Counted from the first letter of the stretch, positions 8,498 to 11,217 are shown. The stretch: DNA of 16,012 nt from a virus (IMGVR_UViG_2684623189_000001); one strand, 5' to 3'. Numbers and translations are program-made. Notes: a model not told the origin generated them from the letters alone.

Positions 8498-8585
8498 TTG
8501 TATGGATTTTTATTATGGCGTTAACTTTTATGGGGTATGAACAGTACGACATCTTCTAGGTATTCAGTTACTTAGAGGATTTATT

Positions 8586-8834
8586 ATGTCTGTAAAAAAT
8601 AAGGCGCGTGACCGACTTCCCGGTGGCCGCCTTAAGTCTTATCGTCGTGTAGGTTCACATTTTGCCAGTTGTGCCAGATGGTTTGATAAATCGCCGTCCT
8701 GGTATCGCAATATGATGATGACCAGGCCTGAGCGTCGTGAAGTCAGAAGGCTTCTCAATCAGGTAATGCGTGGTCATGATGCTGACGGCATTGCTTTTCC
8801 GGTCAGTCATCGTCCGTTTGTTTATTGGTGGTGA
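8586..8834 (+). CDS. Hypothetical small basic protein
   Basis: 82 aa, Arg/Trp-rich. GAGG ribosome-binding site 8 nt upstream. In the accessory region between secretin and att site. No family recognised. Confidence 0.45.
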   Translation: MSVKNKARDRLPGGRLKSYRRVGSHFASCARWFDKSPSWYRNMMMTRPERREVRRLLNQVMRGHDADGIAFPVSHRPFVYWW

Positions 8835-9018
8835 ATTTCGTACGCACGAAATTTCACGCATAAACACCAGACAAAAAATCGTTAACTGTCTGTTTTGAAA
8901 GATAACGCCGGTCAGTGACAAAACTTGTTTTGTTGCTGTCCGGGGTTGGCCAAGCCGTACAGTTTCCATTTTCAGCGTTATGGCTGATTCGGCGCGGCAG
9001 CATTCATCGGGGCTTATC

Positions 9019-9228
9019 ATGGAAAAATTCATGACACATCAGGAGCTGAAAGTGATGCTTCTTAAAGATCCAGCATTCCGGGCTGCTTATGAAGCTGAGA
9101 GCCAGAACCCGCAATCCGGTTACCAGATTATCCGGCATCATGGTGATGGCACTGAAGAAGTGGTGTTTGATTCTCGTGTATCAGGTACAGATTTACCAAC
9201 TAACTGGATGAACAGGCCTGATTGGTGA
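9019..9228 (+). CDS. Hypothetical small protein (ORF track places the start at 8980; 9019 preferred)
   Basis: About 69 aa from the ATG at 9019, which has a GGGG ribosome-binding site. N-terminal motif ELKVMLLKDPAFRAAYEA. Last gene before the att site. Confidence 0.4.
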   Translation: MEKFMTHQELKVMLLKDPAFRAAYEAESQNPQSGYQIIRHHGDGTEEVVFDSRVSGTDLPTNWMNRPDW

Positions 9229-9368
9229 GGTCAGGCCGTTCACTTACTGCTGACAGACATTTGATTCTGATTCGTTTGGAGAAACGGATGATTTTGAATC
9301 ACTGTCGATAGTAGCCAGTTGACGGCCAGTGTCAACGATTCCCGCCAGATTCTGCCATCCTTACCATT

Positions 9369-9401
9369 GGTGCGCATAATGTACGACTCGTTATGTTGAA
9401 A
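9369..9401 (+). other. dif-like XerC/XerD site at the copy1/copy2 junction (attP-type)
   Basis: Identical to 224-256 but flanked on the left by prophage sequence rather than chromosomal flank. Confidence 0.6.
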
Positions 9402-9402
9402 A

Positions 9403-9434
9403 GGCCGCTGCGAAAATCGTATCCCGCAGCGGCC
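9403..9434. terminator. GC-rich hairpin terminator (copy 2)
   Basis: Identical to 258-289. In the array it also lies downstream of the plus-strand secretin and small-ORF genes of copy 1. Confidence 0.55.
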
Positions 9435-9465
9435 TCTTTAGCATAACGTCATTGTGCGAACCAAT

Positions 9466-9945
9466 TTATATAGAAATGAAAAACTCCTCTTCATTCCTTT
9501 TTTTATAATTATCATCCCATATAAGTTTTATTCGGTATTTAGTTTTACTTCCAAAGCTTAGTCCCGCTAAAATTTCAATCCCATGTTGCGGGTGTAATAC
9601 TTCATATGGAAATTTATCTTCTACATCATGCATGAAAAGATATTCATTGCCATCGTTATCAGGGAAATGAATTTCTATATTTTTAGCCTCAACTTTCCCT
9701 CTATTAAATATCTTGAGTCTATAGTTGTTTTTGGCTATTTTTACGAGGCGGGCACCAAGCTCAGCCTTCATCTCATTAATTGCTGACTTTGTTTCTTTTT
9801 CTAGAAGCAACTTACGTAACCTGTCTTGCTCATCCTTTATAACCTTTTGTTCTCTATCACTTTTTCTCGACTTCACTTCTGATGATATGATAGTGTAAAT
9901 CGATACTACAAGCGCAGCTAAAGCGATGGCATCACTCGTTGTCAT
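9466..9945 (-). CDS. Hypothetical single-pass membrane protein, cargo gene (copy 2)
   Basis: Identical translation to 321-800 at offset +9145. Confidence 0.65.
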   Translation of the reverse strand: MTTSDAIALAALVVSIYTIISSEVKSRKSDREQKVIKDEQDRLRKLLLEKETKSAINEMKAELGARLVKIAKNNYRLKIFNRGKVEAKNIEIHFPDNDGNEYLFMHDVEDKFPYEVLHPQHGIEILAGLSFGSKTKYRIKLIWDDNYKKRNEEEFFISI

Positions 9946-10220
9946 TATTTAATCCTTATATTTTTACTTCCTTTAAATGCCTTTTTGAGCATATCATTAA
10001 ACTGTTTTTGAATATCTTTTGTTAACTCTTCTTTTATCTCATCCACATGGGCGTCAATACTCACCCCGTTTTCTTGGATTAAATCATCATTAGTGAATTC
10101 TTTCCCGCAGCCTACACATCTGACGACTTCAGACTCTTCCTCGTGTTCCATCTCTGTATTTCCGCACACAGGACATAGCAGGGTGATATTTCTATTGTAT
10201 TTCTCAGGATTTAGTTTCAT
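9945..10220 (-). CDS. Hypothetical zinc-ribbon protein, cargo gene (copy 2)
   Basis: Identical translation to 800-1075. Confidence 0.65.
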   Translation of the reverse strand: MKLNPEKYNRNITLLCPVCGNTEMEHEEESEVVRCVGCGKEFTNDDLIQENGVSIDAHVDEIKEELTKDIQKQFNDMLKKAFKGSKNIRIK

Positions 10221-10248
10221 ATATTTCCTCTCTTCTACGTTTTATTGA

Positions 10249-10671
10249 TTACCAGTAATATGAATTTCTTCTGTGCCACCAATAAAGCAGCCCGTATCCG
10301 ATGATAAGAATTCCGAAAAACATCAACGACATTCCCCAGCCAGTTCCATACCACGAAACCATATCATCGAAAACCAATCCACCCGTTTCACGTACTCCGG
10401 CAGCTTCCTTAAGGATTGGTTTGAATACCGGAATCAGAAGGGCAATCGCCAGTGGAGCACCCCAGCGAACAAGACCTGTTTCCATTTTGATCCCGAAAAA
10501 GATCCCCGCCCCGACAACAAGCAGCCAGACTATCAGGCCAGGCGCAGTTTCCAGTGCTGTTTGCCATTCAACATCGAAAGTTTTCATTAGCCAGGCAACA
10601 ACTGCCAGGCAGAAAGCAAATACGCCGACGACAACCAGTTCAACGCCGCTTGTTTCGTTGTTTCTACTCAT
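10249..10671 (-). CDS. Hypothetical 4-TM membrane protein (copy 2)
   Basis: Identical translation to 1104-1526. Confidence 0.65.
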   Translation of the reverse strand: MSRNNETSGVELVVVGVFAFCLAVVAWLMKTFDVEWQTALETAPGLIVWLLVVGAGIFFGIKMETGLVRWGAPLAIALLIPVFKPILKEAAGVRETGGLVFDDMVSWYGTGWGMSLMFFGILIIGYGLLYWWHRRNSYYW

Positions 10672-10715
10672 CCTTTTGATCCTTTTTCACTGTTCAAAAT
10701 TCGCACAATAAAGAA

Positions 10716-10740
10716 CGTGCAGTGTTGGTAATACTGCACG
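10716..10740. terminator. Hairpin between repressor and cargo genes (copy 2)
   Basis: Identical to 1571-1595. Confidence 0.45.
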
Positions 10741-10770
10741 TTTGTCTCATTCCTGAGACTGTTAATCCTT

Positions 10771-11217
10771 TTACTCTTCTCCAGACACCGCTTTTTTCAT
10801 AAACATTTTAGTACTGTAAGTGTATGAACTTAAGGCAGAAACCTGCCTTGCGAGTGCCAGAATATCTTGTTTTTCCAGTGTCCTGATGTTCCACACGATG
10901 AAATTATGTGCGTTAGTGGTTTCTTCATCAGTATATCCATCCGCAGAAGTGATTAGCTTCCGCTCGGTAGCTTCTTCTTTAACATCAAGAGCATAGCCAT
11001 AAGCTAAGGTGTTTAAGTCTGCACCCGTAATTTTAGCTATCTGAATGATGTCACTGAATTTAGGTTCAGTTTTGCCGGACGCTATCCTGACCAGCGTACT
11101 CACGCTAATGCCAGTCTTCTCGGCCAGTTCTTCATAAGTCGAGTGTTCCAGAATTACCTTTTTGATACGTTCTGCTCTCTGTTTGTCCGCCATAACTTCA
11201 TGCTCATTGTTGCCCAT
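10771..11217 (-). CDS. XRE-type HTH repressor (copy 2)
   Basis: Identical translation to 1626-2072. Confidence 0.75.
   Translation of the reverse strand: MGNNEHEVMADKQRAERIKKVILEHSTYEELAEKTGISVSTLVRIASGKTEPKFSDIIQIAKITGADLNTLAYGYALDVKEEATERKLITSADGYTDEETTNAHNFIVWNIRTLEKQDILALARQVSALSSYTYSTKMFMKKAVSGEE

Follow-up and report, generated by a model that had tools for sequence, protein, structure and literature searches.

We analyzed a 16,012-nt stretch of viral DNA (IMGVR_UViG_2684623189_000001), hereafter the window, which is a tandem array of a filamentous prophage of the CUS-1/YpfΦ type integrated at dif. Between its secretin gene and its phage attachment site (attP), this prophage carries two small open reading frames (ORFs; positions 8586–9228), which we call ORF1 and ORF2. 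Sequence comparison identifies ORF1 as a homologue of YPO2280a and ORF2 as a homologue of YPO2281, both already catalogued as genes of unknown function. Our best inference is that the two genes encode factors that maintain the element, and not virulence cargo. We further found that ORF1 is preceded by a short leader whose end is predicted to pair with the Shine-Dalgarno region of ORF1; ORF1 would be made only when a ribosome translates this leader through to its stop codon. We estimate that the composite statement, element-maintenance roles with leader-gated expression of ORF1, would hold with a probability of about 0.6, and our confidence in any specific biochemical activity of either protein is much lower. 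All coordinates refer to the window (Table 1).

A Leader Peptide and a Predicted Anti-Shine-Dalgarno Hairpin Precede ORF1

The string GAYATYTTCTAG is kept within 75 bases 5' of the ORF1 homologues, even in marine relatives that are ~40% identical in protein. This string is the end of a micro-ORF whose peptide terminates in GYEQYDIF* in the window (asterisks denote stop codons), and ORF1 starts 26 nt past the stop codon of this leader. Leaders ending in D-I-F-stop were found in 20 of the 21 loci of the ORF1 family, where they span 11–15 codons (24–25 if an upstream in-frame ATG is counted). They were also present in most of the further metagenome loci (e.g., MGAIESYYSKDIF*, MKNEFEGYYSKDIF*, and MGIFYWGQDIF*), two of which have no in-frame ATG. 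Among the leaders of Enterobacterales, the codons for G, Y, E, Q, D, and I vary only synonymously and the stop codon is TAG, TAA, or TGA. These synonymous-only changes and interchangeable stop codons suggest that the leader peptide and its termination are under selection, and not the RNA alone.

The end of the leader is predicted to fold back onto the Shine-Dalgarno region of ORF1. The 5' arm of this RNA hairpin, ATCTTCTAGGTA (8551–8562), comprises the last leader codons, the stop codon, and about six further bases, and it pairs with TACTTAGAGGAT (8569–8580), which includes the Shine-Dalgarno sequence AGAGGA (8574–8579). The pairing extends over 12–16 bp, and the hairpin of the window presents a minimum free energy of −15.4 kcal/mol (z = −3.6). 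Across 25 distinct sequences, 93.7% of the cells were paired, relative to 42–52% when the partners were slid. Double-change cells numbered 26, whereas shuffling gave 8.6 on average and none of 500 shuffles reached the observed value; five pairs changed on both sides, and one pair was seen as GC, CG, UA, and AU. Remote relatives retain both the leader and the hairpin, with compensatory changes. An earlier note on this DNA described a good ribosome-binding site for ORF1; the sequence of the site is good indeed, but its AGAGGA is paired inside the predicted hairpin. The leader and the sequestration of the ribosome-binding site were overlooked in that note, and the leader with its putative covarying hairpin, previously unnoticed, is new here. 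No sigma-70 promoter was found on the plus strand 5' of ORF1 or ORF2.

Leader-dependent translation classically shows this arrangement. On reaching the leader stop codon, a ribosome would unwind the 5' arm and free the Shine-Dalgarno sequence, which lies 15 nt downstream. Two options may be considered. One is termination-reinitiation, which would couple ORF1 to the upstream morphogenesis operon and for which the spacings to consider are 17 nt between the secretin stop codon and the leader and 26 nt between the leader stop codon and ORF1. Alternatively, the ribosome may stall at the conserved DIF-stop, as in the erm and cat leaders and in stop-codon arrest peptides; PepNL and NanCL, two 14-aa leaders, are known to arrest at their own stop codons. 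The leader of the window has the same length as these two. More broadly, it shares with ermC/cat attenuation and with TnaC, PepNL, and NanCL a short conserved upstream ORF, the conservation of the C-terminal residues and stop codon, and a leader 3' end lying in a hairpin that would mask the downstream Shine-Dalgarno sequence. In contrast, it presents no sequence similarity to known arrest peptides, and the regulated gene encodes a small basic protein of a mobile element, unlike the resistance and metabolic genes of the known systems. The leader-hairpin pair constitutes a candidate new regulatory leader peptide, with natural compensatory variants at hand.

Both ORFs Evolve as Plus-Strand Genes

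The earlier note had located both ORFs correctly (its ORF2 start, 9019, is the conserved one) but left the coding strand uncertain, as a 125-aa minus-strand ORF overlaps both. This third ORF is present as described and the overlap is real, but the uncertainty is settled in favor of the plus strand by the ratio of nonsynonymous to synonymous substitution rates (dN/dS) and by the distribution of stop codons. Using 12 gapless 82-codon homologues of ORF1 from Pantoea, Brenneria, Xenorhabdus, and a metagenome-assembled genome, we obtained a dN/dS of 0.13 for the plus frame, with 36, 29, and 65 variable columns at the three codon positions and no internal stops. Similar values were obtained for ORF2 with eight homologues (dN/dS 0.16; 20, 16, and 46 variable columns; no internal stops). 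In contrast, the minus-strand frame presented a dN/dS of 1.26 and 21 stops in 12 homologous sequences, and 1-nt indels break the intergenic section of this frame in relatives. That the region is non-coding, or that the minus-strand ORF is the real gene, could be argued from the length of this ORF, the longest of the interval, and from the lack of known domains in the plus-strand ORFs; given the substitution patterns, stops, and indels, we regard this as virtually inconceivable and the minus-strand ORF as spurious. A substitution pattern favoring the minus frame, or no frame at all, is what the earlier note had named as evidence against the two genes, and the opposite was found. These results indicate that ORF1 and ORF2 are genuine plus-strand protein genes under purifying selection, and this proof of the strand is new here for both.

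ORF1 Represents a Large Family of Small Basic Proteins

As noted earlier, the product of ORF1 is basic and rich in Arg and Trp: it has an isoelectric point (pI) of 11.5, 18 Lys and Arg residues, four Trp residues, and a grand average of hydropathy (GRAVY) of −0.85. A profile search of 1.8 billion cluster representatives yielded 153 relatives at E ≤ 1e-3, and the conserved C-terminal core of the family reads PxWW..TRPxRR..G.D.D..FP..KPHxYYW. No match to ORF1 was found in Pfam, NCBIfam, PADLOC, or PDB. When both ORFs and their aligned homologues were scanned against Pfam, NCBIfam, PHROGs, and PADLOC, only phrog_6642 (ORF2) and a marginal phrog_12343 were recovered. The statement of the earlier note that neither ORF has an assigned function holds, as homology and structure searches gave no family or fold match. 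One candidate member, a Pseudomonas locus, was a false positive lying within a 960-aa gene.

ORF1 and ORF2 both have homologues across Enterobacterales, and each was found without the other. The ORF1 protein is 59–79% identical between phages whose secretins are 26–49% identical and whose Zot proteins are 30–47% identical. The hosts of these phages (Xenorhabdus, Brenneria, Pantoea, Morganella, Yersinia, and E. coli) differ widely in lifestyle. In 15 of 18 loci, ORF1 is followed on its own strand by a dif-like site, 130–1900 nt away. In several marine gammaproteobacterial contigs, remote leader-bearing relatives adjoin the 5' end of a Tn3-family transposase gene in divergent orientation, and other remote relatives were found at island borders. 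A longer subfamily without the leader was found in contigs densely packed with small unannotated genes; one of these contigs (L047) looks phage-like, and only one such group has a dif-like site nearby. ORF1 thus belongs to a large undescribed family of small basic proteins that extends outside inoviruses, which is new here.

The breadth of the family and its conservation beyond that of the structural genes suggest a function in the biology of the element or on a conserved host machine. Being very basic and rich in Arg, Trp, and Tyr, ORF1 would most likely bind nucleic acid or such a machine, and it would serve the element's own recombination, replication, or maintenance, and not host virulence. 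The earlier note had leaned toward accessory or conversion cargo, which does not agree with the identities of ORF1 relative to the secretin across hosts of such different lifestyles. Indeed, since ORF1 outconserves secretin and Zot across diverse hosts, a core function in the element fits better than a host-specific moron. It has to be considered, however, that ORF1, ORF2, or both are morons that alter host fitness or virulence, in the slot occupied by ctxAB in CTXΦ. The review of YpfΦ mentions this position of ctxAB as well as modest in vivo fitness gains conferred by YpfΦ and CUS-1, for which no responsible gene was identified, and the region adjacent to the attachment site is variable in related phages. 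Against such lysogenic conversion, ORF1 outconserves the morphogenesis proteins in pathogens of insects, plants, and animals, its relatives occur in transposons and marine bacteria, and ORF2 accompanies attP also in an element of 1.45 kb without phage genes (see below). Moreover, neither protein is hydrophobic overall, and no signal peptide or membrane segment was apparent on reading the sequences, no predictor having been used. We consider lysogenic conversion quite unlikely and prefer a role in element maintenance.

Control of the hok/mok type is characterized by a tightly sequestered Shine-Dalgarno sequence together with a leader ORF. ORF1 could by this token be a toxic or addiction protein stabilizing an easily lost episome or transposon, with its leader coupling acting as a safety catch like that of mok-hok. 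The instability of YpfΦ as an episome would suit this scenario, as would the presence of relatives beside toxin-antitoxin genes (RelB/ParE, HicB) in several loci. However, ORF1 is hydrophilic and basic, unlike the membrane peptides of the Hok type, no antisense promoter overlaps the leader, and no cognate antitoxin is consistently adjacent, ORF1 and ORF2 occurring independently of each other. An addiction role seems to us very unlikely.

Several of the remote loci deserve a separate description. The Tn3-adjacent ORF1-like genes (L042:171–3776, L043:2747–3982, L076:432–1411, and L083:8548–11479) all present the DIF-stop leader. In L043 and L044, a RelB/ParE pair follows downstream, and a dif-like 28-mer with three mismatches lies at a distance of 1.1 kb. 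In another locus (L067:3090–3958), a HicB-family antitoxin gene lies directly 5', on the same strand, of the leader and ORF1-like gene; HicA was not recognized there.

ORF2 and an Invariant Hairpin Block Next to attP

ORF2 encodes a protein (GRAVY −0.82) whose core corresponds to residues 1–52. Although the longest ORF opens at 8980, all homologues and phrog_6642 keep the start at 9019, which indicates that the start annotated by RefSeq/PGAP (9031) is four codons short. Homologues of ORF2 are 55–100% identical and were found only at dif-linked positions in Enterobacterales; a dif-like site lies 3' of ORF2 in most of the loci long enough to show one. The tail of the protein (window 9216–9290) differs by lineage, and a cluster of 197 member sequences has a deletion-derived ending, ...NRPERMILNHCR. 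Such variable, deletion-derived endings suggest that the tail beyond residue 52 is dispensable. We found no match to ORF2 in Pfam, NCBIfam, or PDB, and its AlphaFold2 (AF2) model (predicted local distance difference test, pLDDT, of 70) consists of two helices, a beta-hairpin, and a disordered tail. Its N-terminal motif, ELKxxLLKDPxFRAAYEA, led us to consider a type II antitoxin-like protein, which we rejected: no antitoxin or helix-turn-helix (HTH) domain and no conserved partner gene were found.

A copy of ORF2 that is 77% identical follows the secretin gene of IKe-like phages (Ff-type coat, G3P, and gene V), 157 nt before dif. The same copy lies in an element of 1.45 kb (L033:3904–5383) with a dif-like hybrid site and dif at its ends. 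Besides the ORF2 homologue, this element contains only two minus-strand genes, an 18-nt palindrome, and an invariant hairpin block, both of the latter described below, and no phage genes. It could be a mini-IMEX (integrative mobile element exploiting Xer), a satellite, or a deletion remnant. In Xenorhabdus prophages (L010:6382–6540; L012:6382–6540), ORF1 is followed by a 52-aa ORF (MKKIMTFREKLELKKREENPEFIKVYGE...) that resembles the N-terminal helices of ORF2 and lies below tblastn detection, such that the pairing of ORF1 and ORF2 may predate what the searches show.

The intergenic DNA between the two genes (8835–9018) is more structured than shuffled sequences (z = −2.8) and contains a near-invariant hairpin block. 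Over 8902–8943, 37 of 42 alignment columns are invariant in eight lineages, relative to 96 of 156 in the core of ORF2. The block is an imperfect inverted repeat with arms of 21 nt that are 81% complementary. The earlier note reported a perfect palindrome here (ACAAAACTTGTTTTGT, 8918–8933), which consists in fact of two 7-nt arms around TT, forming the tip of this longer repeat. Coding is ruled out by 1-nt indels in the loop, which disrupt all reading frames. Fourteen of its 18 pairs never vary and a single double change was observed; because the pairs hardly vary, the constraint is on the sequence, as expected for a cis site recognized by a protein. YpfΦ-like phages, IKe-like phages, the mini-element, and Pantoea all carry the block, which was absent from Xenorhabdus phages. 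It is followed by a different gene in Brenneria alni and lies directly before dif in Pantoea, and is thus independent of ORF2. A small basic ORF (MKRKLRRRNQRWLS...; L006:6480–6560 and L010:5460–5777) follows the block in Brenneria alni and stands between the secretin gene and ORF1 in Xenorhabdus khoisanae; it is another shuffled cargo gene of the region.

The hairpin block is probably a cis-acting DNA site of the attP-proximal cassette, read by host factors. As its carriers differ in assembly genes and in gene V, a host-primed minus-strand origin would be the most economical guess. The Ff/IKe intergenic region, which follows gene IV and contains the packaging signal and the minus- and plus-strand origins, likewise presents stable plus-strand hairpins just 3' of the secretin gene, and the extreme conservation of the block is also suggestive of a cis-acting site. 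In contrast to that region, the one described here is interrupted by two protein genes and has no sequence similarity to INPHARED phages. ORF2 and the block would form an attP-proximal module, and the distribution described above indicates that ORF2, the upstream hairpin block, and attP represent a portable cassette moving as one block, which is new here.

Two shorter elements were noted in the same intergenic DNA. Directly after ORF1, the earlier note described a hairpin with arms AATTTCG and CGAAATT around tacgca; it is present at 8834–8853 and is really an 18-nt near-palindrome (8835–8852). This palindrome, perfect or with one mismatch, also lies 5' of the ORF2 homologues of five loci that all lack ORF1 (L029, L032–L034, and L039). 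It occurs once per phage copy, and a repeated operator was dismissed with only one site per genome. A second invariant non-coding block precedes ORF2. Finally, a possible hairpin at the ORF2 start codon was discarded, as its covariation was unconvincing when the alignment was inspected by eye.

attP and the Possibility of a Xer Activation Factor

The attP of the window contains inverted partner arms (9366–9381 with 9450–9465, and 9389–9412 with 9425–9448), and its plus-strand single-stranded DNA (ssDNA) is predicted to fold into a forked duplex resembling dif, with a GC hairpin as its cap (z = −5.6 relative to shuffles for 9229–9465). It shares with the folded single-strand attP of the CTXΦ type two inverted sets of dif-like half-sites that pair in the plus strand. 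No phage-encoded factor is known to be required in CTXΦ. The folded attP of CTXΦ uses host Xer recombinases, and the same folded model was proposed for YpfΦ in its review. In Vibrio IMEXs, the terminal attP-proximal gene is xafT, which encodes a DUF3653 protein that activates XerD; in Xanthomonas phages, a DUF3653 protein binds the packaging signal instead. The authors of the XafT study considered that other superfamilies of Xer activation factors may exist.

ORF1 and ORF2 resemble the XafT/DUF3653 proteins of TLCΦ, Vibrio CTX-I inoviruses, and Xanthomonas phages (PSB15) in being small proteins at the attP-proximal end of a dif-integrating filamentous phage. However, neither contains DUF3653 (PF12375; LTG, WAGFxF, and TPE motifs): we found no hmmscan match at E ≤ 10 in 19 ORF1 and 12 ORF2 homologues and none at E ≤ 0.1 in the 49 members of a more diverse alignment (A4), and hhalign gave a probability of ~0.1% relative to the DUF3653 protein of Cf1c. 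These hidden Markov model and profile comparisons exclude membership of either ORF in the XafT/PSB15 family. One of the two proteins might still be a functional analogue, non-homologous to DUF3653, that activates or steers host XerCD at attP or dif in integration, excision, or the dynamics of tandem copies. Such a role would be in line with the terminal position of xafT-type genes and the expected existence of other superfamilies, as in most loci these two ORFs close the run of plus-strand genes ahead of dif and ORF2 was never found away from the neighborhood of attP. The strong conservation of ORF1 would also suit a partner as conserved as XerC or XerD. Aside from the lack of DUF3653, the attP architecture looks like the CTXΦ folded-ssDNA type, in which host recombinases serve, rather than the TLCΦ type, and remote relatives of ORF1 lie mostly away from dif-like sites. 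We view a Xer activation analogue as unlikely. The broader role in element maintenance, which we favor, does not point to Xer in particular: the variable distance of ORF1 to dif and these remote relatives give no indication of a Xer-specific role.

Weight of the Evidence and Implications

Several observations weigh against leader-gated maintenance factors. The arms of the leader hairpin were extracted from predicted folds, which favors structure in the pairing frequencies given above, and the slid control keeps the relatedness of the sequences. The nucleotide conservation of the leader (AUCUUCUAG) is partly forced by its pairing with the Shine-Dalgarno sequence, so a role specific to the peptide rests on the synonymous pattern of GYEQ and DI and on the kept stop codon. 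One relative (L040) has CAG in place of the leader stop codon and three others (L051, L077, and L082) have no in-frame leader start. The remote relatives of ORF1 are mostly without recognizable dif nearby. The AF2 model of ORF1 is unusable (pLDDT of 51) and that of ORF2 has no structural neighbor. The invariant block presents almost no covariation and no promoter match, which makes its role a guess. The idea that the block is an origin traveling with the gene II/V module common to YpfΦ and UPΦ901 was also not supported, as the gene V of the IKe-like carrier is unrelated.

A more ambitious scheme would combine these elements. The DIF-stop leader may define a new class of arrest or sensor peptides that, together with the Shine-Dalgarno hairpin, switches an ORF1-family effector according to translational state; this effector would target the element's recombination or replication (for instance, Xer- or transposase-linked steps), and the block, ORF2, and attP would form a portable integration/origin cassette. 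We hold this full scheme to be improbable. If true, dif-integrating inoviruses and Tn3-family transposons would switch on an ORF1-family effector by the translational state of the cell, and the cassette could turn unrelated inoviruses, even gene-poor mini-elements, into dif-integrating satellites.

Only a few gene blocks set pandemic Y. pestis apart from its ancestors, and YpfΦ is one of them; CUS-1 is a marker of invasive E. coli K1. The review of YpfΦ places YPO2280a and YPO2281 between the secretin gene and the attachment site, without predictable function, and regards the terminal ORFs of the prophage as the open question for what the phage does. Our results weigh against a simple toxin-gene model and toward element maintenance. 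YPO2280a would be recast as a tightly gated member of a broad family of mobile-element proteins that outconserves the phage assembly genes, and YPO2281 as part of a portable attP-linked cassette.

Table 1. Features between the secretin gene and the attachment site, in coordinates of the window
Feature	Position	Strand	Description
Leader micro-ORF	8515–8559	+	MALTFMGYEQYDIF*; 14 codons and stop; starts 17 nt past the secretin stop codon
RNA hairpin, leader end with ORF1 Shine-Dalgarno region	8551–8580	+	predicted fold and covariation
ORF1	8586–8834	+	YPO2280a homologue; RefSeq WP_001399975; ATG 8586 to TGA 8834; 82 aa
Minus-strand ORF	8655–9032	−	125 aa; longest ORF of the interval
18-nt near-palindrome	8835–8852		ATTTCGTACGCACGAAAT (ATTTCGTAC/GCACGAAAT); directly after the ORF1 stop codon
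Near-invariant non-coding hairpin block	8902–8947	+	arms 8904–8924 and 8927–8947; fold and cross-lineage conservation
Second invariant non-coding block	8987–9004	+	ATTCGGCGCGGCAGC(AT)T; 15 nt 5' of ORF2; exact matches across loci
ORF2	9019–9228	+	YPO2281 homologue; phrog_6642; RefSeq WP_001298440; 69 aa; pI 5.2
Structured spacer between ORF2 and attP	9229–9368	+	140 nt; long imperfect hairpin 9234–9327
dif-like attP	9366–9465	+	XerC arm GGTGCGCATAA at 9369–9379

Organization of the Prophage

The identification of the element as a CUS-1/YpfΦ prophage is based on its periodicity, its dif junctions, and its matches in E. coli and Y. pestis. The ORFs recur with a period of 9145 bases, and no difference separates the two copies from position 222 on. 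The divergent opening 221 bases terminate at GGTGCGCATAATGTA, the XerC side of the dif site of E. coli, and this motif is found again at 9369. In E. coli FDAARGOS_1303, a tandem array with at least three copies within the stretch examined matches the interval at 100% identity. This array is annotated with replication protein II/X, a DNA-binding protein, DUF2523, Zot, a GspD-type secretin, and two hypothetical proteins, and it ends with an intact dif. Among 5426 complete E. coli genomes, ~95 contain 80% or more of the interval. In Y. pestis NCTC5923 (loci L002 and L003, tblastn), ORF1 is 100% and ORF2 97% identical. The order Zot-secretin-ORF1-ORF2-dif is shared by the window and loci L001–L003 and L020–L028. 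This order and the YpfΦ literature bear out the earlier description of an inovirus with both ORFs between the secretin gene and a dif-type attachment site. The INPHARED phage collection yielded no nucleotide match to the window, near or distant.

YpfΦ and CUS-1 present the same genes in the same slot between the secretin gene and attR/dif and form the same tandem arrays at dif. Their literature gives no function for either ORF and does not mention the leader, the hairpin at the ribosome-binding site, or the wider family. The leftward cargo is different: YPO2271/2272 in YpfΦ is replaced in the window by a 159-aa protein, a 91-aa zinc-binding protein of the ECs_2282 family, and a 140-aa protein, followed by a 148-aa HTH repressor (321–2072 and 9466–11217, minus strand). 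The 159-aa protein corresponds to phrog_6723 and its N-terminus is weakly holin-like. In other E. coli strains, a DUF6953 protein replaces this cargo. In FDAARGOS_1303, the DUF2523 (pVI-like) gene is frameshifted in the central one of the three prophage copies examined (L001:9539–9825) and intact in the flanking copies.

The 140-nt spacer between ORF2 and attP is optional, being absent in Pectobacterium and Brenneria relatives, and covariation in its long hairpin was unconvincing when the alignment was inspected by eye. Rfam searches at E ≤ 1 gave only chance-level matches, around the attP hairpin. Finally, a 72-bp stretch within 9392–9465, which comprises a GC-rich terminator-like hairpin and the second dif-like arm, was found at ~93% identity in roughly 470 places on E. 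coli plasmids. On one of them (NZ_CP062893), it directly adjoins an STM4504-family gene, at the 3' end of this gene, beside insertion sequence remnants.

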